NCBI GenBank assembly: GCA_963747695.1
Contig: CAVVFV010000010.1
Coordinates: forward strand, 261,618-325,617
Reading direction: 5' to 3'
Length of the DNA: 64,000 nucleotides
Source of the DNA: Candidatus Falkowbacteria bacterium
GTDB taxonomy: Bacteria; Patescibacteriota; Patescibacteriia; Patescibacteriales; WJLG01
Of the stretch, positions 3,391 to 62,829 are shown piece after piece (position 1 is the first letter of the stretch; each line of letters opens with the position of its first letter). Made by a program: the position numbers and the translations under genes. The notes under the pieces were generated by a model. The model worked only from the letters and a program-made list of their open reading frames with translations. It made no database searches and was not told the DNA's origin.

Positions 3391-3436
3391 ATTTTTTACT
3401 TTTTACATACTTGTCCCGCCGCAGCGGGATTACTTT

Positions 3437-35496: not shown

Positions 35497-36819
35497 CTAC
35501 TTGGCGGGTTGCAGTTCGACAGCCAGCTCTTCCTTCAAAACCCGGAAGATCTCTGCCACCGGATCGGGCGACGTGAGAAACTGTCTGCCCCCGACGAAGA
35601 AATTGCCGCCGTACTCCTTTGCTCCGGCAAAAGTACCGGTCCGTTTTTGTTCATTCTTACCTGCTTCGGGAGAGCGAAGCGCGGGAATGACAATAACCGC
35701 TTCGGGATATTTCTTCCGCAGCATTGCCGCTTCTTCGGCTGAGCAGACAAAGCCGCGCGCCCCCGCGTCGTAGGCGATCTGCGCCAGCTTCTCCACTTGG
35801 GGCAGCGGCAGGCGACAGAAAATCTCCTCGGACTGCGGGCCAATTGAAGTCAGAACCGTTACTGCCAACACAATGGTCGGAGTTCCAGCCATTCCTTCGA
35901 CTGCAGCCTTGACCATTTCACCGGCACCGGAAGCGTGAACGGTAACTGCCCAAGGCGGCGTTTTCCGCAAACGGTTACAGTAATTTGTTATGGTGGGAGG
36001 AATGTCGTGCCACTTGGGGTCATACATTACCCGCGCGTAGACGGAAAGGTCAGCGATCAATTCGTTTACATTGTCAATCATGGAAAAATCATTAATTTTG
36101 GCAATGCAACCGCTTGGACGCAGACGATCAAGTAAGGAAAAAACTTCTTCCCGTGGCTTGCCGTCATAGGCAACGATCAAGGGATTGATCTTTTCGAGTT
36201 CCGGATCGCAGCGTTCCATCAGTTTGTTTTCGACGAGAAAACGACGCACATGATGCAACGTCATTCCGGCCCAGACTTCGACATCGCCGAAACCGGCTTC
36301 GGCCAGCTTCTTCTGCCAGCCCTGCTGACGGTCGACCAAAACTACGATCGCGACAATGACGGCTCCGACCGCCCGAAGTTCCGTAAGCGGCGCCAACTTC
36401 GAAGCGCCGTCGGTTACGACGTCGTCAACGATCACCACTCGGTCACCGCGTTTTATATCGCCGATCAGTTTCCCTTTTGTTACGCGTCCAAGCTTGGCCT
36501 CTTCCCTGATAGTTACCAGCGGTATGCCGGTGATGACGGAAAGATGGCCGGCCAGCGGACTGACCGCGTCCGGCACTTCGACGATCCGATCAACATGCAG
36601 CCGCCGCACCGGATTTTCGTATAGCCCGGCCAGGTAGCCGATCAGTTCAGGATGGCTGCGCATGTCGCGCAAGTTGATGTACACGTCAGTAGAGCCGCCT
36701 TTTTTGAGCGGCAAGCTCCGCTTGTTGTCCCACTTGATAATACCGGTTTTTACCATCTTCTGGCACGCCTCTTCCTGCTCGAGTTCGGCCAGCCAAGGAG
36801 AATCGCTGATCTTCTTCAT
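35497..36819 (-). CDS. Bifunctional orotate phosphoribosyltransferase / orotidine-5'-phosphate decarboxylase (UMP synthase-like fusion)
   Basis: N-terminal PRTase motif VVIVDDVVTDGAS. The C-terminal half has DPKWHDIP and OMP-decarboxylase-like motifs. The Met at 36819 is preceded by an AAAGGG RBS. Confidence 0.75.
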   Translation of the reverse strand: MKKISDSPWLAELEQEEACQKMVKTGIIKWDNKRSLPLKKGGSTDVYINLRDMRSHPELIGYLAGLYENPVRRLHVDRIVEVPDAVSPLAGHLSVITGIPLVTIREEAKLGRVTKGKLIGDIKRGDRVVIVDDVVTDGASKLAPLTELRAVGAVIVAIVVLVDRQQGWQKKLAEAGFGDVEVWAGMTLHHVRRFLVENKLMERCDPELEKINPLIVAYDGKPREEVFSLLDRLRPSGCIAKINDFSMIDNVNELIADLSVYARVMYDPKWHDIPPTITNYCNRLRKTPPWAVTVHASGAGEMVKAAVEGMAGTPTIVLAVTVLTSIGPQSEEIFCRLPLPQVEKLAQIAYDAGARGFVCSAEEAAMLRKKYPEAVIVIPALRSPEAGKNEQKRTGTFAGAKEYGGNFFVGGRQFLTSPDPVAEIFRVLKEELAVELQPAK

Positions 36820-36931
36820 ATCAACCCTTTCGTTAAGGTGAATATTAGTTATGCGTGTTAAAAAAGTACATTCCAATCATCACAATTTATCCGATAATTA
36901 CAACAAAGTCAATAAGTTGAAAAAGGTGTCG

Positions 36932-37399
36932 TTATTTTTTCAAGATGATATTTTCACCAAGACTTATTCCCATTTTTTTAACCAGACCTCCGTTAACTTC
37001 CAAAACGTATTTCGCCGGGGCGGCTGATTGATAGGTCGGACAGGGGTCAGCGGTGCAGGGTAAAAAATTATTTTTAAGATCGACGATCTTTTGGTCGGCC
37101 GAGATGAAAATCATATCTAGGGGGATCAAAGTATTCTTCATCCAGAAGGATTGGATCGACTCTTGGGGAAAAATAAATAGCATGCCGGAATCGGCCGGCA
37201 ACGACGGGCGATACATCAAGCCTCTAGACCATTGGGCCGGAGTCTTAGCCAATTCAGCGTGAATGATAAAATTCGGGTGGCTCGCCGACAAAACATCGAT
37301 CGTCTTAGCTTTATAGAAAAATAAAAACAAATAGGCCGCGCCGGCGGCGATAATTATCAGGCTGAAAAAGATTATAAAACTCCTGTTTATAACTTTCAT
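36932..37399 (-). CDS. DUF192-family protein
   Basis: GLMYR..L....GMLF.F......FWMKNT..PLD..F motif pattern with an N-terminal TM anchor. Confidence 0.7.
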   Translation of the reverse strand: MKVINRSFIIFFSLIIIAAGAAYLFLFFYKAKTIDVLSASHPNFIIHAELAKTPAQWSRGLMYRPSLPADSGMLFIFPQESIQSFWMKNTLIPLDMIFISADQKIVDLKNNFLPCTADPCPTYQSAAPAKYVLEVNGGLVKKMGISLGENIILKK

Positions 37400-37485
37400 A
37401 TCAACATAATTACTCGGTAGGAACGCGATACCTTGCGTTCTACAGCCGACGTTTCAATACCCAAGGAACGCAAAGTATTGCGTTC

Positions 37486-38382
37486 CTACGAATTAATAAA
37501 TGGATTTGGTTGATTAAAATCCGGCAAAAATATTTCGCCCGCTTCCGGCTCCTGTGTCCAGCCATTCTCCAGTCCAAGTTCAATTTTTTTCTTTTCCGCC
37601 GCCGCGATTTCTTCGGGCGATATTTGCCGGCTCAATTCCGGAAATTCGGCCGCGCGATTCACCCCGCCTTTTCCGGAAAGGGAGGGGTAAACCGGGAAAT
37701 ACTGGCTCATCAAACTCAAATGGATTTTTTTATCAATAGCGGCGATCTTTTCCAGCGCAGAAAAAGTATTGGGCAAATTATTCGGCAATATCATGTGCCG
37801 AATGATCAAACCTTTTTTGGCCAAGCTATTATCATCAACAGCCAATAAACCAACTTGCCGATACATTTCCCTGATCGCCTTATCCGCCACCTCGGAATAC
37901 TTTGGCGCGTGCGAATATTTCGCCGCCGCGACATCGTCCCCATATTTAAAATCGGGGAGATAAATATCAATCAACCCTGCTAAATCTTTAATCGCCTCGA
38001 CCGATTCATAAGCGTTGGAATTCCAAGCCAGCGGAATTTTTAATCCTTTTTCTTTGGCCAGAACAATCGCCTGCTTTATTTCCCGCCGCCACGGTGTGGG
38101 AGTCACTAAATCAATATTAGCCGCTCCCTGCTTTTGCAGATCCAACATTATTTGTGCCAATTCTTCGACCGAATATTCTTTGCCCAAATTTTCCCAACTG
38201 ATCTGCCAATTCTGGCAAAAAACGCAATGCAAATTACAGCCGGAAAAGAATATCGTCCCCGCTCCGAATTTCTCCCCTCCTTCCGAAGGAGGGGTTTGGG
38301 GGTGGTTTGCCTGTCCGACTAGCGGCGGTTCCTCGCCGAAATGCTTGCCGAACCAAGCAATTTTGATTTTTCTTTCAGCCAT
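37486..38382 (-). CDS. Radical SAM protein (PflX/PflA-like), carrying two palindrome-encoded in-frame inserts
   Basis: GCNLHCVFCQNWQIS CxxxCxxC motif. The inserts PPSEGGEKF and SLSGKGGVNRA coincide with GC-rich palindromes. Confidence 0.75.
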   Translation of the reverse strand: MAERKIKIAWFGKHFGEEPPLVGQANHPQTPPSEGGEKFGAGTIFFSGCNLHCVFCQNWQISWENLGKEYSVEELAQIMLDLQKQGAANIDLVTPTPWRREIKQAIVLAKEKGLKIPLAWNSNAYESVEAIKDLAGLIDIYLPDFKYGDDVAAAKYSHAPKYSEVADKAIREMYRQVGLLAVDDNSLAKKGLIIRHMILPNNLPNTFSALEKIAAIDKKIHLSLMSQYFPVYPSLSGKGGVNRAAEFPELSRQISPEEIAAAEKKKIELGLENGWTQEPEAGEIFLPDFNQPNPFINS

Positions 38383-38429
38383 ACTTAAAGCTTACAACAA
38401 AAGGCGTTCCAATGAAACGCCCTCTGCCC

Positions 38430-38795
38430 TTGTCGGGGTACTGGGATTCGGTCACGGCTCTCGTCGGCTTCCGCCTCCTCGGCCGCGAACCCCGCCTCGC
38501 GATGCGGCTCGCCAAATGCTCGCCACATATCGCTCCGGCATTCAAATCCCATCGCGAGCCAAGCAGTTGGCTCGCTTTACCCCGACAAAAAAACGGCTTA
38601 GGCCGTTTTTCCTTGTCGGGGTACTGGGATTCGGTCACGGCTCTCGTCGGCTTCCGCCTCCTCGGCCGCGAACCCCGCCTCGCGATGCGGCTCGCCAAAT
38701 GCTCGCCACATATCGCTCCGGCATTCAAATCCCATCGCGAGCCAAGCAGTTGGCTCGCTTTACCCCGACAAAAAAACGGCTTAGGCCGTTTTTCC
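38430..38795 (-). repeat. Tandem array (2 x 183 bp, identical) of tRNA-linked GC-rich element, subfamily 1
   Basis: Period 183 bp measured at 38430, 38613 and 38796. Each unit carries tRNA-Pro acceptor strands, a T-loop copy and a terminator-like hairpin. Confidence 0.85.
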
Positions 38796-38798
38796 TTG

Positions 38799-38884
38799 TC
38801 GGGGTACTGGGATTCGAACCCAGAACCTTCCACCTACGTTCCGAGGCGGAACTTCGGTGGACGCAGCACGCACCTTCGTGAAAA
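38799..38884 (-). pseudogene. tRNA-Pro 3' half (anticodon stem 3' strand to acceptor end) with a 38-nt hairpin insertion
   Basis: Minus strand reads GGTGCGTG + TCCACC...GGTGGA hairpin + AGGTT-CTGGG-TTCGAAT-CCCAG-TACCCCG-A. No matching 5' half adjoins it. Confidence 0.7.
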
Positions 38885-38961
38885 TGGTCGGGGTACTGGG
38901 ACTCGAACCCAGAACCTCACGCACCCGAAGCGTGCGCCATAGCCAATTAGGCCATACCCCG
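38885..38961 (-). tRNA. tRNA-Pro(CGG), CCA encoded
   Basis: Acceptor CGGGGTA/TACCCCG, anticodon arm CACGC-TTCGGGT-GCGTG, T arm CTGGG-TTCGAGT-CCCAG, A73, CCA. Confidence 0.9.
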
Positions 38962-39028
38962 ACCATTTTCGCGAATTTAAAAAATAATGTAAGCACCTTT
39001 ACCCGCCGAAGCGATTAGCGAAGGCGGG

Positions 39029-39064
39029 CGAAGCGTGCGCCATAGCCAATTAGGCCATACCCCG
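39029..39064 (-). pseudogene. tRNA-Pro 5' fragment (first 36 nt)
   Basis: 36/36 identical to 38926-38961. It then diverges into the hairpin CCCGCC...GGCGGG. Confidence 0.75.
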
Positions 39065-39188
39065 AAAAAACAATTAAAAATTAAAAATGAAAAGTTAAAA
39101 ATTTAATATATAATTTCAGCCTACAGTATAAACAGTCTGTCGTCAATAAAAATATTTTTAATTTTGCATTTTTAATTTTTAATTGTTT

Positions 39189-39273
39189 TGGTGGGCATGG
39201 AGAGACTCGAACTCTCAAGGATTGCTCCGTACGCACCTGAAGCGTATGCGTCTACCAATTTCGCCACATGCCC
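39189..39273 (-). tRNA. tRNA-Leu(CAG), CCA encoded
   Basis: Acceptor GGGCATG/CATGCCC, anticodon arm TACGC-TTCAGGT-GCGTA, long variable arm, T arm GAGAG-TTCGAGT-CTCTC, A73, CCA. Confidence 0.9.
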
Positions 39274-39382
39274 GAAATAGTATCTCGTATTTAGTATTTG
39301 GTATTTCGTATATAAATTTTCTGTCTGGCTCGTTCTTCTTCAAATAAAATTAAAAATCAAAAAACTGATTTTCGATTTTATG

Positions 39383-39455
39383 AGCGGGAGACGGGGCTTG
39401 AACCCGCTGCCTCAACCTTGGGAAGGTCGCGCTCTACCAGATGAGCTACTCCCGC
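39383..39455 (-). tRNA. tRNA-Gly(CCC)
   Basis: Acceptor GCGGGAG/CTCCCGC, anticodon arm CGACC-TTCCCAA-GGTTG, T loop TTCAAGC, U73. No encoded CCA. Confidence 0.9.
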
Positions 39456-39501
39456 CTCTCATCGTCTTGTTTGCTCGTCCGCCTTGGGCGGAGGAAGCAA
39501 A

Positions 39502-39526
39502 CATTCTACCGTTGAATTACTCCCGC
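39502..39526 (-). pseudogene. tRNA 5' fragment (Gly-like acceptor plus D arm)
   Basis: Minus strand reads GCGGGAGTAATTCAACGGTAGAATG, followed by the palindrome TTTGCT..TCCGCC-CAAG-GCGGA..AGCAAA. No T arm. Confidence 0.6.
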
Positions 39527-39569
39527 CGTCATTCGCCGGAACCTCAGCGAAGGCGAACTTCGCCAAATC

Positions 39570-40253
39570 CTAATTATCAATATGTTTAATTCCAATTTCC
39601 GGAAAAACAACCTCTTCGCCAGTCGAAAGCAGAAAAGCCACGGTTGCCGCAACTTCTTTCGTATCTAAGGCATTATTCATGTCTTTTTTTAAGCCCATCT
39701 TTTCAAACATCTTTGTTTTCATTTTTCCCAAATAGAGACCAGTAACCCTAATATGATATTTTGATAATTCCTCCTGAATCGATTTAGTAAATCCGGTTAT
39801 TGCCCATTTGGAGGCGGTGTAAACGGATCTATCCGCCTTGGCGTAAAGCCCTGCTTGCGAAACGACATTGATGATAAAACCATTCTTTTGTTTTTTCATA
39901 ATCGGCACAACTTTTTGAGTAAGCAAAATTGTTCCTGTCGTGTTAACAGCGATTACTTCTTTAATTTTTTCGGCGTCACTTTGGTCAATGCCTCCCTCAA
40001 TCCAAAGCCCGGCATTATTTATCAAGCAATCAATTCTCTGATATTTTTTCTCAATTGCGCTTACCGCCGATTCAATTTCCTTTTCACTGGAAATATCACA
40101 AACCAAAAAATCGCATCCTAATTCTTTGGCCGTCTGTTTCAACTTGACGCTGTCATGAGCAAGCAAAATAACACTGTAATCGGATGCCAATTTTTGGGCA
40201 ATCTCCCTGCCTAGCCCATCGCTACCTCCGGAAATGACGACTACTTTTTTCAT
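39570..40253 (-). CDS. Short-chain dehydrogenase/reductase (SDR) family oxidoreductase
   Basis: SGGSDGLG cofactor motif, NNAG, and YTASKWA catalytic YxxxK. Confidence 0.85.
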   Translation of the reverse strand: MKKVVVISGGSDGLGREIAQKLASDYSVILLAHDSVKLKQTAKELGCDFLVCDISSEKEIESAVSAIEKKYQRIDCLINNAGLWIEGGIDQSDAEKIKEVIAVNTTGTILLTQKVVPIMKKQKNGFIINVVSQAGLYAKADRSVYTASKWAITGFTKSIQEELSKYHIRVTGLYLGKMKTKMFEKMGLKKDMNNALDTKEVAATVAFLLSTGEEVVFPEIGIKHIDN

Positions 40254-40272
40254 AGATAATAATATTATCTTG

Positions 40273-40343
40273 TGGACCTAGGCGGAGTCGAACCGCCGCC
40301 TCTGCAATGCGAATGCAACGTCATACCGCTAGACTATAGGCCC
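40273..40343 (-). tRNA. tRNA-Ala(CGC)
   Basis: Acceptor GGGCCTA/TAGGTCC with G3:U70, anticodon loop TTCGCAT, T arm GGCGG-TTCGACT-CCGCC, A73. No encoded CCA. Confidence 0.9.
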
Positions 40344-40351
40344 GCAAACTT

Positions 40352-40476
40352 TGTGGACAATACTGGGCTCGGTCACAGCTCTCGCTCGCTTCCGCTCGCT
40401 CGGCCGCGACCCCGCCTCGCCGTCTTGCTCGCCAAATAGCTCGCAAGACATGGCTCCGGCATTCGAGCCCTGCCCC
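40352..40476 (-). repeat. tRNA-linked GC-rich element, subfamily 1 (solo copy belonging to tRNA-Val)
   Basis: Its first 21 nt (TTGTGGACAATACTGGGCTCG) equal the tRNA-Val 3' end at 40511-40531. The core is collinear with the 183-bp units. It ends in GGCATTCGAGCCC, an inverted tRNA-Val T loop. Confidence 0.8.
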
Positions 40477-40513
40477 TAAAATATTTATCTGACGAAGGTC
40501 AGTAAATATTTTG

Positions 40514-40587
40514 TGGACAATACTGGGCTCGAACCAGTGACCTCTGCAATGTGAATGCAGCGCTCTAACCAACTGAGCTAATTGTCC
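40514..40587 (-). tRNA. tRNA-Val(CAC)
   Basis: Acceptor GGACAAT/ATTGTCC, anticodon arm CTGCA-TTCACAT-TGCAG, T arm ACTGG-TTCGAGC-CCAGT, A73. Confidence 0.9.
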
Positions 40588-40607
40588 GAAACGCCAGAAA
40601 ATTAGCG

Positions 40608-40670
40608 TGTCGGGGTACTGGCCCCGCCAGCCGGCGGGGTCTCCGCTTCGCTCCGAGAATCTCACCACTC
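40608..40670 (-). repeat. Degenerate element remnant ending in a tRNA-Pro-type 3' end
   Basis: TGTCGGGGTACTGG (as in the 38430 array) is followed by the GC-rich hairpin CCCCGCC-AGCC-GGCGGGG. Confidence 0.5.
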
Positions 40671-40675
40671 ACTTG

Positions 40676-40746
40676 TCGGGCTGCGCGGAATCGAACCGCG
40701 GCTACATGCACCCCATGCACGCGTACTACCATTATACGACAGCCCG
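40676..40746 (-). tRNA. tRNA-Pro(GGG)
   Basis: Acceptor CGGGCTG/CAGCCCG, anticodon arm CGTGC-ATGGGGT-GCATG, T arm CGCGG-TTCGATT-CCGCG, A73. Confidence 0.85.
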
Positions 40747-40760
40747 CTATTAAGGCGCGC

Positions 40761-40806
40761 CTGTCCCGCCTTCACGGCGGGATACTACCGCTATACTATA
40801 CCCCGC
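40761..40806 (-). pseudogene. tRNA 5' fragment (GCGGGGTA acceptor plus D-arm-like) fused to a GC hairpin
   Basis: Minus strand reads GCGGGGTATAGTATAGCGGTAGTA, then TCCCGCC-GTGAA-GGCGGGA. No T arm or 3' acceptor strand adjoins it. Confidence 0.55.
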
Positions 40807-40932
40807 CCCTCACCATTTTTCACAAAAAAATCGAACGCCTCCGTAAACTAAAAACGACCTTTTGAATAGTTTACGAAAAATGGTGAGGGGTCGTTTTTAA
40901 TACTATAAAACTTTACCAAAAAAAGCAAGAAA

Positions 40933-41094
40933 TCAGTCTCTTGACTGGAAAAAATCGCAATGGCCGTTGGGCGGGACTTCGCATTTGGCCTCCGAGCAGG
41001 CTCCGGTTTCCGGATCAAAACCGGTGCAACGGGAACATTCATTGTCGGGATTGGACCAGTCGGCGACAAAATTGGCTTCGATTTCGTGAGACAT
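40933..41094 (-). CDS. Small cysteine-rich protein (53 aa), HiPIP-like C-x2-C...C...C pattern
   Basis: Hand-translated as MSHEIEANFVADWSNPDNECSRCTGFDPETGACSEAKCEVPPNGHCDFFQSRD. Below the 60-aa ORF-track cutoff. The competing 73-aa ORF in another frame looks non-protein-like. Confidence 0.45.
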   Translation of the reverse strand: MSHEIEANFVADWSNPDNECSRCTGFDPETGACSEAKCEVPPNGHCDFFQSRD

Positions 41095-41125
41095 ACTTAT
41101 TATCAGATTAATTTTTAATACTGTA

Positions 41126-42154
41126 TTATTGCGCGGTCGAGGTTGCCTCCGGCGTTAAAATTTTGAAACTCTGGGCCATGCCTTCCAGAACCAGATTGAT
41201 CTTTAAGCGATCAAACTGCTTGATCCCCTGTTCGGGAGGGTAATTCAAAATATCGTTGGAATGGATGATCGACTCGACGGCATAGCATTGGCCATTGTAA
41301 ACAGTCCGGTAACTGGTGACATCGTAATAATTTCCAACGCCGGCGTCGGTGAAAATTATTTTGGTGAAATTGCGGTTGCCGATTATCACCTTGGTGGTGG
41401 TGGCAAAATTGCCAAAGTCCGAGATCAGGCAATTCTTGACCGCGCCGGGATCGGCGCTTGTCCCCACCGAAAATTTGGCTTCGCCGAAATTAGTTCCCGG
41501 CATAAATGAGCGGGGAATATTCACGACCGCCAGCAATAGACCAGTGCTGGAGGAATTATAACTCCAGTCTTGGGAAAAACCGATTTCTCCGCCGGAGAGA
41601 ACGAATTGGCTGGGATGGGAAAAAGAGAAAGTATTTTCCTCGTCCGTATATGTATTGATATCTCCGGAAGATGTCTGGTTGCCGGCCACGCAATTGGTAT
41701 AGGTAGTAATATCTTTTTGCGTCAAGAAAGCGTTATCGCCCTTGCTTACCAGAACCGTCGTCCCCGATTCATAGCGGATCCCCGAACCGGACCTAACTTG
41801 CGGCAAGGTCGTCGTACTGCCGTCTTTAAAGATCAGACTGACCGAACTCGAACCGTAATTAGCGCGCAGCACGCCCTCCTGACAAAAATATTTGATGATA
41901 TTAGAACTGGTGGCCGCCGTGCAATCCTCTTCCCAAGGCCGCAGGCATTTCTGCTTGACTTCGCACCAAGAATATCCGGCTGAACCGATACACCCGTGCG
42001 CGTCACGGTCATTGCCGACTAATGATCCGGCTGGAGTAGGATTACTCATCTTTTCCAGCCAGGGGAATTTTTGCCGGTTAAGATACAGATATCCGCCGCC
42101 GACAACCAAGACAATAATAATGATCAAAACAAAGGTTAAAAATTTATCTTTCAT
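41126..42154 (-). CDS. Membrane-anchored exported protein with MliC-like (lysozyme-inhibitor fold) domain
   Basis: N-terminal TM anchor. The central segment LRANYGSSSVSLIFKDGSTTTLPQVRSGSGIRYESG..VLVSKGDNAFL matches the MliC pattern. Confidence 0.55.
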   Translation of the reverse strand: MKDKFLTFVLIIIIVLVVGGGYLYLNRQKFPWLEKMSNPTPAGSLVGNDRDAHGCIGSAGYSWCEVKQKCLRPWEEDCTAATSSNIIKYFCQEGVLRANYGSSSVSLIFKDGSTTTLPQVRSGSGIRYESGTTVLVSKGDNAFLTQKDITTYTNCVAGNQTSSGDINTYTDEENTFSFSHPSQFVLSGGEIGFSQDWSYNSSSTGLLLAVVNIPRSFMPGTNFGEAKFSVGTSADPGAVKNCLISDFGNFATTTKVIIGNRNFTKIIFTDAGVGNYYDVTSYRTVYNGQCYAVESIIHSNDILNYPPEQGIKQFDRLKINLVLEGMAQSFKILTPEATSTAQ

Positions 42155-42214
42155 AGGTTTAATGATGTGTTTAATTACGCCTCAATTATAGCAGCTTTTA
42201 GATTTAAAAAACAA

Positions 42215-42814
42215 CCTGACGCAGGTCGGACTGATTCGGTCACGGCTCTCACTCGCTTCCGCCTCCTCGGCCTCGACCCCGGCTCGCGGTGCTCGGCGCC
42301 GGAATGCGCCTCGCACAACGCTGCGCCTTTCGAATCCTCTCATTTTCCATTCTAACTTAAAAGACCTGACGCAGGTCGGACTGATTCGGTCACGGCTCTC
42401 GTCGGCTTCCGCCTCCTCGGCCTCGACCCCGGCTCGCGGTGCTCGGCGCCGGAATGCGCCTCGCACAACGCTGCGCCTTTCGAATCCTCTCATTTTCCAT
42501 TCTAACTTAAAAGACCTGACGCAGGTCGGACTGATTCGGTCACGGCTCTCGTCGGCTTCCGCCTCCTCGGCCTCGACCCCGGCTCGCGGTGCTCGGCGCC
42601 GGAATGCGCCTCGCACAACGCTGCGCCTTTCGAATCCTCTCATTTTCCATTCTAACTTAAAAGACCTGACGCAGGTCGGACTGATTCGGTCACGGCTCTC
42701 GTCGGCTTCCGCCTCCTCGGCCTCGACCCCGGCTCGCGGTGCTCGGCGCCGGAATGCGCCTCGCACAACGCTGCGCCTTTCGAATCCTCTCATTTTCCAT
42801 TCTAACTTAAAAGA
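42215..42814 (-). repeat. Tandem array (4 x 150 bp) of tRNA-linked GC-rich element, subfamily 1 (tRNA-Ser copy)
   Basis: Period 150 bp measured at 42215, 42365, 42515, 42665 and 42815. Copies 2-4 are identical. A 40-nt run is identical to the 183-bp units. Each unit carries an inverted 15-nt copy of the tRNA-Ser T-loop/acceptor region. Confidence 0.85.
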
Positions 42815-42843
42815 CCTGACGCAGGTCAGGTCTTTTAAGTTAG

Positions 42844-42930
42844 CGGAGATGAGAGGATTCGAACCTCTGATGCCCTTACGGACATACCGCATTTCGAGTG
42901 CGGCCCATTCGACCACTCTGGCACATCTCC
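42844..42930 (-). tRNA. tRNA-Ser(CGA)
   Basis: Acceptor GGAGATG/CATCTCC, anticodon arm CCGCA-CTCGAAA-TGCGG, long variable arm, T arm AGAGG-TTCGAAT-CCTCT, G73. Confidence 0.9.
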
Positions 42931-43124
42931 ATTTTTTAATTACAAATTATGAATTATTAATTATAAATTTTATGGATATTAGTTAATCTACTATTTAAAC
43001 TACAAAGAGTCAATATTGCTAATTTGCCAAAATTTTTTAATACCCGCTTTTGACAAAATTCGACGCGGGTGATAATTTAAAGCGTTGATCTTTGCTTGAC
43101 TGAACATTTTCCTGGAGGTAAAAA

Positions 43125-43448
43125 ATGTATTATTACAGTAAGAAACATCACAAAAAAATAAATGTCAGGGTAAGGGAAGGTTTACGGATGATCGTTGAGG
43201 AAGCGACCGGTAATTTTTCATTCGCTTATCCGAAAAATTCGCCGCTCGCGGAGGCAACACTGTTCTGGGAAACAGCCAGCAATACGGCAGTCATGAAACC
43301 GGAACAATTGAGCAACGGCAAAATCAATTATTTAACGGCGGCCAATCTCTGCGCAAATCTGTCTGGCTTAACGGCTTTCCCGGAAGAATTCAAAGAGAAA
43401 GACAAATATCGTGAATTCGTTTTTGCCAAAACGTCCAATAATCTTTGA
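43125..43448 (+). CDS. Hypothetical protein
   Basis: 107-aa ORF preceded by GGAGG. No recognised family. Confidence 0.4.
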   Translation: MYYYSKKHHKKINVRVREGLRMIVEEATGNFSFAYPKNSPLAEATLFWETASNTAVMKPEQLSNGKINYLTAANLCANLSGLTAFPEEFKEKDKYREFVFAKTSNNL

Positions 43449-43467
43449 AGCCAACCAATCATAACGC

Positions 43468-44964
43468 TCATTGAACCTTCCGCCCGCCAATCGGAAGGTT
43501 TTTATTTTTTTCAGAAATTAAAGCCAGCATGGCGACCAGAATCCAAAACAATGCAGCTAAATCATTTTTAAAATACGGCACATCGACCAAGCCATGGACA
43601 ACAATCACAATCATTGCCGCTAATAAACCAAGATGTAAATATTTATATTCATTTCCCTTAATTGAAAATTTAAAGTTGACAATTGAAAATTTTATTATTA
43701 TCCATGCAAAAATAAATAATCCCGCCAAACCCAGCTCGCTCCAAAAATTCAAAATGATGTCGTGCGGATATAAATATATTTCCACCGGCTGCCAAGTGCG
43801 GGCGCGAACGGCGGCGCTGTTAATCGTATCCTGATGAAAATTAGGATCCGTACCATCATCATAAAAAAAACCTTTCTGGTGATACGGCGCCACGGCAGTT
43901 TGATAATTCCCCAAACCCACGCCTAAAATTTTTGCGTTGCCGTTTAACATCATCAAAGTTTCCTTCCATTGCAAGCGGCGGATCTGACCGGAAAGATCAT
44001 GGGCCGTAATTTTTCTGATGAGCGGTTTCTCGATCGGTGGATAAAAATAGATTCCCGCGCTGGCCACCAGGACAATGATGATAGCCGCGATCCGCGCTTT
44101 TTTATTGGCGTATAAACAAAAAATAAAGGCGGCGGCGGCCAGACCGATCAGGGCGCCGTCGGATTTGGCAAAATAAATCGCGGCTAATGACAAAAGGATG
44201 ATAAACCCCAAAAAGGCTTTGGATAAACCGATCGCAGAAATTCTTTCTTTTGGTAGCGGATAACAGATTTTCTCCTCAAACGGCGTGCATTCCTTTTTGG
44301 CCGGCAGTAATAAGAAGCTGAACAGGACCGGAATGATGGGGCCAAGATACAGGCCGACCGCGTTGGGATAGCCGAAAAACGAGACCGCCCGGCGCGTGGC
44401 TGCCGCGGCCCAGAGCGGATTATCAATCCCGATCCCGGTGAACTTTTGAAAAATCGCGTAGGCGGAAACAAGCAAGGCGCCAACCGCCAAGCTCAAGCCG
44501 ATTTTATTCAAACCATTCTTGCCGGGAAGAATATTGAGGATCAAGACATACAACAAGGCTGGTTCAAAAAAATAGGCCTTCCACAAACCCAAAGAAGCCG
44601 CAGAGAAATGAGGCAGACTGGCCGCGAAAAGTGAAACGATCAACAATAAAATGATTTCAATCCCAAAAGGATATTTTCGCCGGCCTTCCGCGCTGCCGCC
44701 CTTTCGCCACGGGCTGTTCATTAAAAAATCTTTAACTGAATATTTACCGTGCAAAAAATCCCAAAACTTTGTTTTGAAAACAAACCAACAAAAAAAAGCG
44801 ATCAGGATCATCGCCTCCAAAAGCGTCAGCGGGACTAATATTTTGAATCTAACCAAATACAAAGGCAGGCCGGCGATGACGAGCATCACGGCCCAGTCTG
44901 ACCTTTTGAGCGACAAGACAAAAAAGGCGAGTAAAAATATGGCCAAAAATATTGCGTAACTCAT
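43468..44964 (-). CDS. O-antigen ligase/polymerase-like (Wzy_C family) polytopic membrane protein
   Basis: About 12 TM helices with a central periplasmic loop, typical of O-antigen ligase-like proteins. Confidence 0.5.
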   Translation of the reverse strand: MSYAIFLAIFLLAFFVLSLKRSDWAVMLVIAGLPLYLVRFKILVPLTLLEAMILIAFFCWFVFKTKFWDFLHGKYSVKDFLMNSPWRKGGSAEGRRKYPFGIEIILLLIVSLFAASLPHFSAASLGLWKAYFFEPALLYVLILNILPGKNGLNKIGLSLAVGALLVSAYAIFQKFTGIGIDNPLWAAAATRRAVSFFGYPNAVGLYLGPIIPVLFSFLLLPAKKECTPFEEKICYPLPKERISAIGLSKAFLGFIILLSLAAIYFAKSDGALIGLAAAAFIFCLYANKKARIAAIIIVLVASAGIYFYPPIEKPLIRKITAHDLSGQIRRLQWKETLMMLNGNAKILGVGLGNYQTAVAPYHQKGFFYDDGTDPNFHQDTINSAAVRARTWQPVEIYLYPHDIILNFWSELGLAGLFIFAWIIIKFSIVNFKFSIKGNEYKYLHLGLLAAMIVIVVHGLVDVPYFKNDLAALFWILVAMLALISEKNKNLPIGGRKVQ

Positions 44965-45012
44965 AACGCGTAGCGCGTAACGATTCTGCCGTTATGCGTT
45001 ACGCGTTATGCG

Positions 45013-47997: not shown

Positions 47998-49404
47998 TTA
48001 CTTCCCTGTCCGCCTTGGGCGGATGACTTCTGCCTTAAACAGATCGCCCCGTTCCTTATAATTCTTAAAACAGCCGAAACTGGCGCAGCCGGTCGAGAGC
48101 AGAACGATGTCGCCGAGTTCAGATTCTTGTTTGGCGATTCTAACAGCGTCTTTCATATTATTGACTACTCGTAACCCATAACTCGTAACCCGTAACTCTT
48201 TTTTTAACCGCTCGGACCCTTTACCTTTGAATAATATTAAAAATTTTACTCGCTTATTTATTTCTTGGGCGAATTTTTTGAAATCCGAGCCTTTGTTGGC
48301 GCCGCCGGCCAAGAGAATGATATTTTTCTTTCCCGCGAATGATTTCAAAGCGATAACGCTGACATCCGGCACCGTGGCAAAACTGTCATCAAAATAGCGC
48401 ACGCCGTTAATTTCGGCGACAAATTCCAGGCGATGCGGCAAGCCTTTGAAATTTTTCACTGTCCGAGCCACGATTATCGGCTTGATCTTCAAAATCTTAG
48501 CCACCGCAACTGCGGCGGCGATATTCTCCTTATTATGTTTGCCGATCAAATTGCTGACTAATTCCGATTTTCCGTAAACAATAACCTTTGCCGGAGTTCG
48601 GACGCCGTAATCCTTAATCTGCAAATCTTCATTGACAACTAGATAATCTTTCTTGGCCTGATGAGCGAAAATATTCGCTTTGGCGGTCCAATAATCTTTC
48701 ATCGATTTGTGATAATTCGGATTGTGCGGATCAGCTGGAGCCAGATGTTCTTTGAATAAATTAGTTACCACGGCGATGTGTGGGCTAATATCCAAATCTT
48801 CCAATTGAAAGCTGGATAATTCCAAAACAACATAATCATCCGGCTTAATTTTCTCGATAAATTCAAACGGCGCATTGCCAATATTCCCACCGAGAAAAAT
48901 ATGGCGCTTTCGTAGGAACGCAAGATTTTGCGTTCCTACCTTAAGAATTTCATAAATCAGCGACGAGGTTGTCCCCTTGCCTTTCGATCCGGTGACGCCA
49001 ATGATATTTTTCGTCGGACATAATTGAAAAAATAATTTCATCGGGCTGGATATTTCCACGCCGGCTTTCTTAGCCTTGAGCAGATTGGGATTAAAAAGCG
49101 GGTAGCCGGGCGAACGAAAAATAATGTCAAAATCCGCCAGATGCTTATCGTAATCCTTGCCGGTCATCAAATTTATCCCCGGCATTTTATTCTTCCGCGC
49201 CAATTCCTTAATCTCCAAAAACCGATCGCCCAATTCCGCCGCCGATTTCGGATCGCAAACCGTAATATGCAACCCTTGCCCCGCCGCAGTCTCCGCCGCG
49301 TGACTGCGGCGCAATAAATATTTCACCAACGCCAAATTCTCCACCCCCAACCCGAGCATGGCAATCTTCTTATTCTGCAAAAATTTTAATTTATCCTTTA
49401 TCAT
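47998..49404 (-). CDS. murD: UDP-N-acetylmuramoylalanine--D-glutamate ligase
   Basis: GVTGSKGKGTT P-loop, Mur ligase middle and C-terminal domains. Carries two repeat-derived in-frame inserts. Confidence 0.85.
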   Translation of the reverse strand: MIKDKLKFLQNKKIAMLGLGVENLALVKYLLRRSHAAETAAGQGLHITVCDPKSAAELGDRFLEIKELARKNKMPGINLMTGKDYDKHLADFDIIFRSPGYPLFNPNLLKAKKAGVEISSPMKLFFQLCPTKNIIGVTGSKGKGTTSSLIYEILKVGTQNLAFLRKRHIFLGGNIGNAPFEFIEKIKPDDYVVLELSSFQLEDLDISPHIAVVTNLFKEHLAPADPHNPNYHKSMKDYWTAKANIFAHQAKKDYLVVNEDLQIKDYGVRTPAKVIVYGKSELVSNLIGKHNKENIAAAVAVAKILKIKPIIVARTVKNFKGLPHRLEFVAEINGVRYFDDSFATVPDVSVIALKSFAGKKNIILLAGGANKGSDFKKFAQEINKRVKFLILFKGKGSERLKKELRVTSYGLRVVNNMKDAVRIAKQESELGDIVLLSTGCASFGCFKNYKERGDLFKAEVIRPRRTGK

Positions 49405-49460
49405 GCGTTTTTCTTACTTCTTAATTCCTACTTCTTACTTTCTTGTCCGCCTTGGGCGGG

Positions 49461-52738: not shown

Positions 52739-52841
52739 CTTTCACCTCCTTTCCGGAAGTTTTAAAAAATGGAATAAAGGGCTGTCTACCGCTAATCTAT
52801 CACACTTTTCGCAGAAAATCCAGAGCGGCTTCCGGGCGGGT

Positions 52842-55836: not shown

Positions 55837-55886
55837 ATTTTAAAAAGATGTTTGTCCACGACAAAGGTCAGATTGAAAAAAATATG

Positions 55887-55924
55887 TGGACCAGAGGAGG
55901 TTCGAACTCCTTACCTCCGCGTTG
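55887..55924 (-). pseudogene. tRNA-Ala-like 3' fragment (anticodon stem 3' strand to acceptor end)
   Basis: Minus strand reads CAA-CGCGG-AGGTA-AGGAG-TTCGAAC-CTCCT-CTGGTCC-A. It pairs with the 5' fragment at 56136-56156, including G3:U70. Confidence 0.65.
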
Positions 55925-55939
55925 TCCCGCACCTTTTTG

Positions 55940-56011
55940 TGGAGATAAGGAGACTCGAACTCCTGACCCTCGCGTTGCAAACGCGATGCTCTACCACTGA
56001 GCTATATCCCC
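55940..56011 (-). tRNA. tRNA-Ala(TGC)
   Basis: Acceptor GGGGATA/TATCTCC with G3:U70, anticodon arm TCGCG-TTTGCAA-CGCGA, T arm AGGAG-TTCGAGT-CTCCT, A73. Confidence 0.9.
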
Positions 56012-56135
56012 AAAAAAAGGTGCGGGACGGCGCTCCCTGTCCCGCTCCAGTTTTCAATATTAAAACAAAGATTTGTTTTTTTTATATATTATTTAAAATT
56101 TCGAACCCTATTCTTCTGCAAAAACTGGGGCGGGA

Positions 56136-56156
56136 TACCAACTGAGCTACTGGCCC
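56136..56156 (-). pseudogene. tRNA-Ala-like 5' fragment (acceptor plus D stem/loop)
   Basis: Minus strand reads GGGCCAG-TA-GCTC-AGTTGGTA, then diverges into TCCCGCCCCAG. Confidence 0.6.
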
Positions 56157-62707: not shown

Positions 62708-62829
62708 GCTCTGGGTAATCCCGCGGCAGTCTCGGGATGCCGACTTTGCGTCGGCAGAATCTCCGCTACATCGGCCCCTGGCCGTGAGCGGATCCGCGCA
62801 CGCCTACGGCGACTTCGCGGAGAACTCAC
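62708..62829 (-). repeat. tRNA-linked GC-rich element, subfamily 2 (tRNA-Cys copy)
   Basis: The minus strand starts GTGAGTTC (like the tRNA-Cys T stem plus loop) and ends GATTACCCAGAGC (like the tRNA-Cys 3' end GATTCTCACCCAGACC). The start of the core, CCGCGGCAGTC, matches the Arg-linked element. Confidence 0.6.

Follow-up and report, generated by a model that had tools for sequence, protein, structure and literature searches.

An intact tRNA-Pro(GGG) gene within the remains of another: probable overwriting of a resident tRNA gene by a self-compensating cassette in Patescibacteria

Architecture of the nested locus

We analyzed a 64,000-nt stretch of a Candidatus Falkowbacteria bacterium chromosome (assembly GCA_963747695.1, contig CAVVFV010000010.1, positions 261,618 to 325,617 of the forward strand), hereafter called the window, in which an intact tRNA-Pro(GGG) gene lies between two fragments of another tRNA gene (40806-40608, minus strand). 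Positions are those of the window, nucleotides within tRNA genes are counted from the 5' end, and relatives and other contigs carry labels beginning with L. Read on the minus strand, the nested unit consists of a 5' fragment, a hairpin, a spacer, the intact tRNA-Pro(GGG), a 35-nt trailer, a second hairpin and a 3' fragment. The 5' fragment (40783..40805, CGGGGTATAGTATAGCGGTAGTA, with a preceding G at 40806) is nt 1-23 of a resident tRNA-Pro(GGG), designated allele A, and comprises the acceptor 5' strand and the D arm. Right at the D-arm break starts the left junction hairpin (40764..40782, TCCCGCC-GTGAA-GGCGGGA) with its perfect 7-bp stem, followed by the 17-nt leader of the inner gene (40747..40763, CAGGCGCGCCTTAATAG), which is composed of a conserved tail, CAGGCGCGCC, and an A/T-rich spacer. 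The inner gene, allele B (40675..40746), has the acceptor strands CGGGCTG/CAGCCCG and the T stem CGCGG/CCGCG. It was called Pro(ggg) by ARAGORN, was matched by Rfam family RF00005 with 54.8 bits (E=6.6e-10, against a threshold of 29 bits), and has the anticodon arm and the other features of a canonical bacterial tRNA. The trailer (40640..40674) contains a conserved segment, TCTCGGAGCGAAGCGGAGA, and the motif GAGATTC, which is probably left over from the 5' strand of the resident T stem and the start of the T-loop. It leads into the right hairpin (40622..40639, CCCCGCC-GGCT-GGCGGGG), which also has a perfect 7-bp stem, and the unit ends with the 3' fragment of allele A (40608..40621, CCAGTACCCCGACA), that is the T-stem 3' strand, the acceptor 3' strand, the discriminator and CA. 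The nesting, and the distinct acceptor of the inner gene, are thus as described in the original prediction.

In order, the approximately 160 nt that replace the middle of allele A are a GC hairpin, ACAGGCGCGCC, a spacer, allele B and the hairpin(s) in the old T-loop. Relative to its intact orthologue the outer gene is without nt ~25-48, and since the anticodon arm is missing the outer pieces cannot make a tRNA. The outer split gene lacks the make-up of a canonical tRNA and gave no Rfam match even at E<=10. With all Rfam families and the same cut-off, cmscan of 36000-45000 returned only intact tRNAs and sub-threshold noise, and no known ribozyme, intron or sRNA in Rfam accounts for the flanks of the nested locus in this 36-45 kb region. 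The 14-mer CCAGTACCCCGACA occurs in the window four times exactly and once with one mismatch, compared to 0.18 occurrences expected by chance. Its identity to the end of the array at 38430 and to the 3' half of tRNA-Pro(CGG), noted previously, is real but is no sign of a shared event, as Pro isoacceptors have TCCCAGTACCCCGAC in common.

Upstream of the resident gene lies a promoter-like region (40900..40928, minus strand, TTGCTT-17 nt-TAGTAT, conserved sequence TTCTTGCTTTTTTTGGTAAAGTTTTATAGTATTAAAAAC), and its sequence is conserved in the window, L012, L014, L017 and L018. Judged by its sequence this region presumably serves as promoter for the nested unit as a whole and for the tRNAs that follow it. 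In the window the region is kept, but an 85-nt insert breaks the adjacency of the upstream flank to the 5' fragment. This insert (~85 nt, 40806-40890, minus strand) is bounded by a 16-nt inverted repeat (CCCCTCACCATTTTTC / GAAAAATGGTGAGGGG) and separates the promoter-like region from the 5' relic; at the same place the relatives have a short hairpin, AACAGCCC..GGGTTGTTTTT.

Resident and incoming alleles in related genomes

Relatives were fetched by means of the MliC-domain protein that adjoins the locus. Seven syntenic loci were retrieved, and in all of them the gene order is kept: Ser(CGA), MliC, then Pro(GGG), Val(CAC), Ala(CGC), Gly(CCC), Leu(CAG) and Pro(CGG), and finally radical SAM. More distant MliC relatives (L031-L034) had lost synteny and gave no information on the locus. 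An uninterrupted tRNA-Pro(GGG), allele A (CGGGGTATAGTATAGCGGTAGTACGCGTCCATGGGGTGGATGTAGCCTGGGTTCAATTCCCAGTACCCCGACA), was found at the Pro(GGG) position in L012/L013, L015 and L018, and L017 has an intact allele A as the last layer of a two-layer structure. The fragments in the window are identical to the two ends of this intact gene in L012, L015, L017 and L018 (23/23 positions for the 5' fragment, 14/14 for the 3' fragment), and they are clearly genuine tRNA pieces rather than chance matches, as had been predicted. The upstream flank, ...GGGTTGTTTTTATT directly followed by CGGGG, precedes the intact gene in L012 and the 5' fragment in L014, L016 and L017, and the ~20-nt spacer from the 3' fragment to tRNA-Val in the window has its homologue behind the intact gene of L015 and L017. 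Because both flanks are orthologous to those of loci with intact allele A, the fragments are the two ends of the resident, ancestral tRNA-Pro(GGG) and the inner allele B is the incomer. The earlier view of the fragments as orphan pieces of an extra gene is therefore not tenable, since they are anchored to the ancestral promoter side and to the spacer before tRNA-Val.

The nested state is common to the three closest genomes, i.e. the window, L014 and L016 (MliC identity to the window 78% for the latter two, 68-71% for the other relatives). One site with orthologous flanks is consequently intact in L012, L015 and L018 and invaded in the window, L014 and L016, a presence/absence polymorphism of the kind that is a feature of homing-type elements. 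Between alleles A and B, three pairs of the acceptor and three of the T stem show compensated changes, and the D loop differs as well. From their sequences, these differences in the acceptor, D-loop and T-arm would allow a nuclease to discriminate between the alleles.

Comparison of the invaded loci showed which parts of the cassette are kept. The inner allele B of the window matches the L014 copy at 71/72 positions. The left hairpin of L014 has the stem of the window with the loop ATCC, and its right hairpin is CCCCGC-TGGATA-GCGGGG; the two genomes agree fully in both hairpin stems, in the tail ACARGCGCGCC and in a 27-mer of the trailer (ATTCTCGGAGCGAAGCGGAGACCCCGC, 40660-40634), whereas the loops and spacers are scrambled and the 14 nt preceding the 27-mer cannot be aligned. 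In L016 the left hairpin is still formed, although by a wholly different stem (TCCAGCCCCTC/GAGGGGCTGGA). The resident 3' relic is longer in this genome and reads AGGTTC, two small hairpins and AATTCCCAG (= AATTCCCAGTACCCCGACA), which places a precise T-loop insertion at 56/57. In L017 the layers are A(1-23), TCCCGCC..GGCGGGACAAGCGCGC.., B(1-23), TCCCGC..GCGGGACAAGCGCGCC.. and the full allele A, with the hairpin loop AAAA, and the 5' relics have no matching separate 3' relic. Both layers have the junction right after GGTAGTA and the same tail, GGGACAAGCGCGC. The two layers of L017 therefore imply that the GGTAGTA junction has been used at least twice and in both directions, B into A and A into B. 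The consensus GGGACARGCGCGSC was observed at every Pro(GGG) junction (the window, L014, L016 and, twice, L017), and a related tail, GGGACAGGGAGCGCC, is present at a nested tRNA-Ala(TGC).

Broken tRNA genes elsewhere

To look at breakage more widely, all 45 intact tRNAs were compared by blastn-short with the window and six syntenic loci. Outside the intact genes this gave 33 tRNA fragments with 97-100% identity to intact tRNAs, with break points at nt 18-24, 33-36, 43-45 and 55-59. Breaks in or at the edge of the D-loop (nt 18-24) were found in Pro-GGG A and B, Val, Ser, both Gly alleles and Ala, breaks in the anticodon loop (33/34, 34/35 and 35/36) in Val, Gly and Pro-CGG, with further breaks at 43/44, and breaks in the T-loop (nt 55-59) in Pro, Val, Gly, Arg, Ser and Cys. 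Each junction opens with a GC hairpin of the (T)CCCGCC, TCCGCC or CCTGCC type. Val, Gly and Ser have two or three alleles, of which each genome has one intact together with relics of another, and alternation of alleles with hairpin-rich relics was observed also at Ala(TGC) and Pro(CGG). The proposals that the process recurs at many tRNA genes, that the break points cluster at the D, anticodon and T loops, and that 5' fragments are directly followed by hairpins of the (T)CCCGCC or TCCGCC type (seen at Pro(GGG), Gly and Pro(CGG)) are all supported by these data.

The companion cases at Gly and Pro(CGG), each a 5' part followed by a hairpin, are also real, and a nested Ala(TGC) could be added to them. 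In the nested tRNA-Pro(CGG) (38797-39064, minus strand) the outer 5' half (39064-39029) is followed by the hairpin CCCGCC..GGCGGG, the inner gene and the outer 3' half (38874-38797). The outer halves abut exactly at 35/36, and the 3' half carries a 38-nt hairpin inserted at 43/44. Outer and inner genes are here the same allele (36/36 and 30/31 positions identical), and CCA is encoded by the inner copy but not by the outer 3' half. Together the outer halves are complete, but they enclose an intact copy, and no system for joining them was found. The same nested structure is present in L016. In the nested tRNA-Ala(TGC) (55885-56156, minus strand) the outer 5' piece (56156-56136, GGGCCAGTAGCTCAGTTGGTA) is followed by TCCCGCC, and the outer 3' piece (55918-55885) consists of the T arm and CTGGTCCACA, with G3:U70 retained; a 15-nt inverted repeat, GTCCCGCACCTTTTT / AAAAAGGTGCGGGAC, stands on the two sides of the inner gene. 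The tRNA-Gly(CCC) relic (39470-39526, minus strand; 5' part and hairpin 39526-39478) extends from the acceptor to the anticodon arm of a type-2 allele and lies directly upstream of the intact type-1 tRNA-Gly(CCC). The type-2 allele is intact in L016 and L018, and in the window its anticodon is interrupted by a 15-nt palindrome, TCCGCCCAAGGCGGA. In addition, a 16-nt D-arm-like sequence in an intergenic region (52785-52800, minus strand, ATAGATTAGCGGTAGA) is identical to tRNA-His at 15/16 positions and may be a tiny tRNA relic or a chance match.

Not all inserts are cassettes. The palindrome TCCGCCCAAGGCGGA is identical at 39478 (39478-39492) and 48009 (48009-48023), and a near-identical version, CCCGCCCAAGGCGGA, lies at ~49440 (~49440-49455). 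Another palindrome, CCTGCCTGCCGGCAGGCAGG, is perfect over 20 nt; three copies of it were seen in L016 and one in L015, in each case behind the D-loop sequence GGT(T)A. These elements are present in multiple near-identical copies at unrelated sites and are inserted precisely in D, anticodon and T loops, as expected of miniature palindromic elements, and they have probably been mobile. A related short palindrome, TCCCGCTGCGGCGGGA, belongs to a dispersed set that includes 3414-3429, each member being followed by ACA(A/G)G. Short palindromes of this dispersed hairpin family are found at gene ends as well as inside tRNA relics and look like REP/GC-cluster-like elements or terminators.

Nuclease genes at tRNA-Ser in relatives

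The nine open reading frames (ORFs) that neighbor the nested locus encode housekeeping proteins according to Pfam (among them the MliC-domain protein, SDR, radical-SAM, DUF192, PyrF/PRT, Wzy and EamA), and the chromosome is gene-dense and of Patescibacteria type. A different picture was seen at the tRNA-Ser locus of L014 (4862-5700), where Ser(1-21) is followed by a GC-rich core of ~65 nt (termed type-B core), a GIY-YIG ORF (81 aa, Pfam E=2.4e-14), a full tRNA-Ser of another allele, an HNH_3 ORF (105 aa, E=4e-12) and the resident trailer. The GIY-YIG homologues are Patescibacterial. Three homologue clusters (63-85% identity) were looked up, which gave 12 loci in at least three gene neighborhoods, and in 8/8 loci scanned the GIY-YIG ORF ends 4-26 nt before tRNA-Ser; GIY-YIG genes at tRNA-Ser were found in L019 and L024-L030. 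In two of the three clusters a Ser 5' fragment and the type-B core come ahead of the ORF, while the third cluster (L026, L027) has tandem units of type-B core plus Ser 3' half behind the tRNA. The type-B core was observed in both orientations, and as a precise T-loop insertion in partial copies of Pro(CGG) (L014) and Cys (window), which argues that it acts at the DNA level. The partial tRNA-Cys of the window (62752-62828, minus strand) has the ~65-nt core in its T-loop (GAGTTC, core, GATTCT), and in relatives the core is inverted between the Ser 5' fragments and the GIY-YIG ORF.

A large serine recombinase gene (XisF/Ccr-like) abuts or overlaps the 3' end of tRNA-Ser(CGA) in L024 (1789-3009). 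This suggests that classical integrative elements also use tRNA-Ser(CGA) in the clade, so recombinase-type elements coexist there with the cassettes.

Structured elements downstream of tRNA genes

A further type of insert is an element of ~100 nt with a three-way junction, here called Y-core, which lies downstream of tRNA-Val, Pro(CGG) and Ser(CGA). On the minus strand of the window it is present once after tRNA-Val (40357-40476), in two tandem 183-nt units after tRNA-Pro(CGG) (38436-38555 and 38619-38738) and in four tandem 150-nt units after tRNA-Ser(CGA) (42224-42793; 42224-42343, 42374-42493, 42524-42643 and 42674-42793). In the closing helix, an exact complement of the T-loop and T-stem 3' strand of the neighboring tRNA pairs with a direct repeat of the same tRNA's sequence that starts at C56 and extends to its 3' end, and in fuller units the acceptor 5' strand and a hairpin (loop CAACTGCTTG) come first. 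From the closing helix and the acceptor strand it follows that a Y-core unit imitates the top half (acceptor/T) of the tRNA next to it, with the core in place of the T-loop. In an alignment of 13 sequences, 15/30 pairs had compensatory changes, and the element covaries with the identity of the tRNA. A covariance model (R1) found 21 copies in 22 sources, including sources on which it was not trained, and in pattern scans Y-cores were seen beyond the window, after Ser, Met, Ala, Asp and Gln tRNAs, in contigs of other Patescibacteria and of Saccharibacteria. Scan matches in L003 (Nocardia) and L008 (high-GC) were treated as chance. Y-core has no Rfam match, and model R1 detected no Y-core relic in the cassette at 40608-40806. 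In exact-pattern scans of viral_contigs, neither Y-core nor the B allele nor the junction of A with the hairpin had a match (0 in each scan), and a phage origin is accordingly not supported.

Two observations concern related elements. In L017 (400-930) the tRNA-Ser(CGA) upstream of MliC is missing and degenerate Y-core units remain (671-791, 93 bits), which implies loss of the tRNA with persistence of its satellite elements. After tRNA-Arg(TCT) in the window (19511-19723, minus strand) there is a GC-rich structured element of ~190 nt with a third type of core; it opens with GGAATCGAA, the complement of the Arg T-loop, and at its other end the 3' end of tRNA-Arg is repeated directly over 17 nt (19511-19527).

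Among the inserts at tRNA genes are palindromes that are short and perfect, tRNA cassettes led by a hairpin, the type-B core of ~65 nt, which in some cases comes with a GIY-YIG ORF, and the Y-core of ~100 nt. With at least four insert types, and a serine recombinase abutting tRNA-Ser in L024, the single mechanism put forward in the original prediction was not borne out. Of all these objects Y-core is the most novel in the region.

Origin of the nested locus

Taken together, our results suggest that a cassette with an intact tRNA-Pro(GGG) of its own, allele B, probably invaded the resident tRNA-Pro(GGG), allele A, and left the locus as its scar. This interpretation draws on the identities of resident and incomer, the junctions shared between genomes, the layering in L017, the clustering of break points and the linkage to nuclease genes in relatives. 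Among possible drivers homing-type mobility is the likeliest, but that the invasion proceeded by nuclease homing specifically is a more tentative proposal, to which we give somewhat less than an even chance, and the cleavage and repair steps are inferred. In such a pathway, a site-specific nuclease would recognize and cut a conserved motif of the tRNA gene, in the D loop or the T loop, and the break would be repaired from a donor that bears the insert and a resistant or compensating tRNA allele. The cassette would enter between nt 23 and 25, at the D arm's 3' edge, with its GC-rich hairpin foremost, and remove the resident anticodon arm, whereas the resident 5' 23 nt and, past the hairpins in the old T-loop, the 3' 14 nt would survive as relics. 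The inner gene, transcribed from the old promoter, would then be the working tRNA. For diverged alleles a whole tRNA would have to be supplied, as a chimeric acceptor stem could not pair; with identical alleles a 5' or 3' part would be enough, which would give structures that resemble target duplications, such as Ser(1-21)...Ser(full) in L024 or the T-loop direct repeats. The copy in the window would then have no nuclease of its own, through decay or because it was mobilized in trans; we infer that the Pro(GGG) cassette carried a nuclease in the past or used one in trans. The event would belong to a clade-wide process, with insertions in D, anticodon and T loops and with rescue always by a whole or partial tRNA copy borne by the element.

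Two related ideas were rejected or dropped. Target-site duplication does not hold for Pro(GGG), whose inner gene is of another allele than the 5' relic and which has a separate 3' relic as well, but it is possible for L024 Ser and for Pro(CGG). Encoded CCA was considered as a sign of an RNA or retro-copy intermediate, as some copies of the elements carry CCA where the gene does not (L005, L007). CCA is however variable among orthologous intact genes (Leu, Val), and the idea was dropped.

Several observations weigh against invasion by homing. About 25 nt of the resident gene are missing, whereas classic homing gives clean insertions. A nuclease ORF in or abutting an insertion was found in relatives, at tRNA-Ser, and not at the window cassette: Pfam gave no nuclease, integrase, transposase or reverse transcriptase among the nine neighboring ORFs, tblastn with the GIY-YIG and HNH proteins of L014 gave no match in the window, and the 17-nt leader of the cassette is too short for a nuclease gene. 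The 81-aa GIY-YIG protein is a bare catalytic domain without a DNA-binding domain and matches the model of group-I-intron endonucleases weakly and below cut-off, which makes it no more than a putative homing nuclease; a more distant homologue (L031) adjoins no tRNA. Invasion by a cassette also does not account for the short perfect palindromes of 15-20 nt. Finally, the relics (23+14 nt) are 100% conserved in three or four genomes while the adjacent spacers cannot be aligned, and an invasion as old as the split between the window, L014 and L016 should have left decayed remnants, so the relics do not behave as a neutral scar. Constraint on the leader/trailer RNA, selection for intact homology arms and repeated re-invasion are possible explanations of this conservation.

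Alternative explanations

Could the locus have arisen with no mobile cassette at all, by local tandem duplication of the tRNA or by recombination with DNA of a related strain anchored on tRNAs, followed by insertions of palindromes and deletions? The same-allele copies at Pro(CGG) agree with this, as do the palindromes at non-tRNA intergenic sites (3414, 48009 and ~49440) and the several hairpin insertions in relics that are precise and separate events. On the other hand, the abutting of the Pro(CGG) halves fits one insertion and not two independent deletions, and with its compensated changes in acceptor and T stem the Pro(GGG) allele B is not a local duplicate. Junction and tail moreover recur in the two L017 layers and at tRNA-Ala, and equivalent structures at Ser have nuclease ORFs inside. 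We therefore regard an origin without a cassette as unlikely.

It can also be speculated that the Y-core units, the type-B core and the undecayed outer fragments are functional RNAs or single-stranded DNAs that guide a minimal nuclease or recombination to tRNA genes, or that they are top-half decoys against tRNA-targeting toxins. This idea builds on the 5' arm of Y-core, which is the exact complement of the T-loop, T-stem and acceptor 3' strand of the neighboring tRNA, and on the position of the type-B core just upstream of the GIY-YIG ORF. It is a long shot in our estimate; if true, it would define a new nucleic-acid-guided class of tRNA-gene-specific mobile or defense element in Patescibacteria.

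Integration by a tyrosine or serine recombinase, with the fragments as attL/attR duplications from decayed genomic islands, has to be considered, since direct repeats of a tRNA 3' end that start in the T-loop are the classic signature of integrase-type elements. Such repeats abound after Val, Pro(CGG), Arg and Ser, and the serine recombinase of L024 lies at the 3' end of tRNA-Ser. Yet an attP restores the tRNA and displaces a 3' piece only, so that neither a 5' fragment nor a nested full tRNA nor loss of the anticodon arm is expected. The whole insert amounts to ~160 nt, Pfam found no recombinase gene in the window cluster, the resident gene is not restored, and the L017 layers use a D-arm junction and not an att core in the T-loop or anticodon. 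For the nested locus we find integration of this kind highly improbable.

Even less probable is a functional RNA in which the outer pieces make up a split or intron-containing tRNA-like RNA, a processing clamp, or a top-half mimic that is left after excision of the inner tRNA by RNase P/Z. The outer CGGGGUA and UACCCCG do pair in the minimum free energy fold, but the folding z-score is only -2.4 and the invariant fragments give no covariation. The complete conservation of the remnants in three to four genomes, against saturated adjacent spacers, the retention of a hairpin in L016 with an entirely different stem, and the Y-core units at the same loci, evidently selected to mimic the top half of neighboring tRNAs, would all suit such a function. 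Without an anticodon arm, however, the outer gene is not a decoding tRNA, the 5' relics of L017 are without a matching separate 3' relic, and no context of a bacterial tRNA splicing endonuclease or ligase was seen.

Assembly artefact or chance resemblance, which a repeat-rich region from a metagenome might raise, is excluded by exact 23-nt and 14-nt matches to the intact orthologue, by the five occurrences of the 14-mer, by the assembly of the structure in two other genomes, and by an independent Logan contig (L011, run ERR11748453) that spans the locus and is 100% identical to the window over 3,086 nt (39158-42243), so the nested locus is not a mis-assembly.

Significance

Few sequences in any genome are as conserved as tRNA genes, which are thereby ideal landing sites for selfish DNA. 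To our knowledge such DNA is known at tRNA genes mainly as att sites of integrases and, in phages, as nucleases of the SegB type. Here, in a cellular lineage with tiny genomes, a conserved cluster of seven tRNAs (Ser-CGA and the run from Pro-GGG to Pro-CGG) has been repeatedly overwritten; alleles alternate, the loser persists as a nested relic, and hairpins mark the three tRNA loops. We found no description of nested tRNA fragments in Patescibacteria in the literature, and recurrent breakage and replacement of tRNA genes by mobile DNA in this group is apparently new to description. If driven by homing, it would extend intron-less homing with a spare part to bacterial tRNA genes and would account for the turnover of tRNA alleles and for the remnants of tRNA pseudogenes in Patescibacteria. 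A function is hinted at by the relics, which are perfectly conserved, and by the Y-core RNA, which is matched to tRNAs. Nested loci of this kind, which tRNA finders will miss or miscount, would also matter for annotation and for the use of tRNA flanks as markers of islands.

Comparison with known systems

Genomic islands and prophages integrate in tRNA genes and duplicate the 3' part of the tRNA as att, with the anticodon loop and the T-loop as sublocations. The elements described here are similar in their tRNA targets, in direct repeats that start in the T-loop or anticodon loop and in tandem accretion. They differ in having no recombinase, inserts of 15-190 nt, 5' fragments and nested full tRNAs, and a resident that is replaced, not restored.

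Mobile GC-rich palindromes are known from AT-rich genomes, as the GC clusters of yeast mitochondria, the double-hairpin elements of Allomyces and the palindromic elements of Rickettsia. Common to these and to our palindromes are short GC-rich hairpins in an AT-rich genome, precise insertion, also in RNA genes, and identical copies at several sites. In contrast, the hairpins here are down to 15-20 nt long, perfect, strongly tied to the loops of tRNA copies and without visible target duplication.

Archaea (Nanoarchaeum, Thermoproteales) have split, permuted and multi-intron tRNA genes, and as in these the interruptions lie at loop positions and GC-rich complementary sequences abut the halves. 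Here, though, the host is a bacterium, the outer gene has no anticodon arm, and no bulge-helix-bulge or splicing system is evident. The Pro(GGG) halves, which are without an anticodon arm, do not qualify as a split or intron-containing tRNA, and given the constant presence of an intact copy the interrupted ones resemble relics rather than genes.

Closer parallels are found among homing systems. From earlier work on T4, SegB is known as a free-standing endonuclease in the tRNA gene cluster of T4/T6. In phage T6, SegB is a GIY-YIG homing endonuclease that cuts within tRNA genes at RAWTSGAAC, is significantly enriched beside tRNA genes and drives tandem amplification of tRNA units via short homologies (PMC13096335). 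We read RAWTSGAAC as the reverse complement of the T-loop sequence GTTCGAAT. The outcome of the SegB system is preferential inheritance or tandem amplification of segments that contain tRNAs. In line with this, GIY-YIG genes adjoin a tRNA in the relatives (tRNA-Ser), breaks occur at T-loop positions 55-57, and tandem units of 150 nt and 183 nt follow Ser and Pro. The differences are that the host is a cellular Patescibacteria chromosome and not a phage, that the nuclease is a bare catalytic domain of 81 aa, that insertion within the tRNA gene leaves a nested pseudogene, that D-arm and anticodon sites are used as well, that GC palindromes stand at the junctions, and that the copy in the window has no nuclease gene.

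The element in the mitochondrial atp6 gene of Allomyces macrogynus, which Paquin, Laforest and Lang are said to have described in 1994, reportedly combines an endonuclease ORF with a foreign replacement for the end of the gene, the resident end being displaced. The likeness lies in a self-compensating invasion, where a replacement copy is supplied and the displaced resident piece is left alongside as a relic. In Allomyces this concerns the 3' end of a protein gene, whereas here whole tRNAs or their 5' or 3' parts are supplied, repeatedly and in several genes, for the most part with no ORF. In summary, the observation is real, and it is largely explained by a self-compensating cassette that overwrote a resident tRNA gene from the inside, a variant of homing or spare-part mobile DNA.

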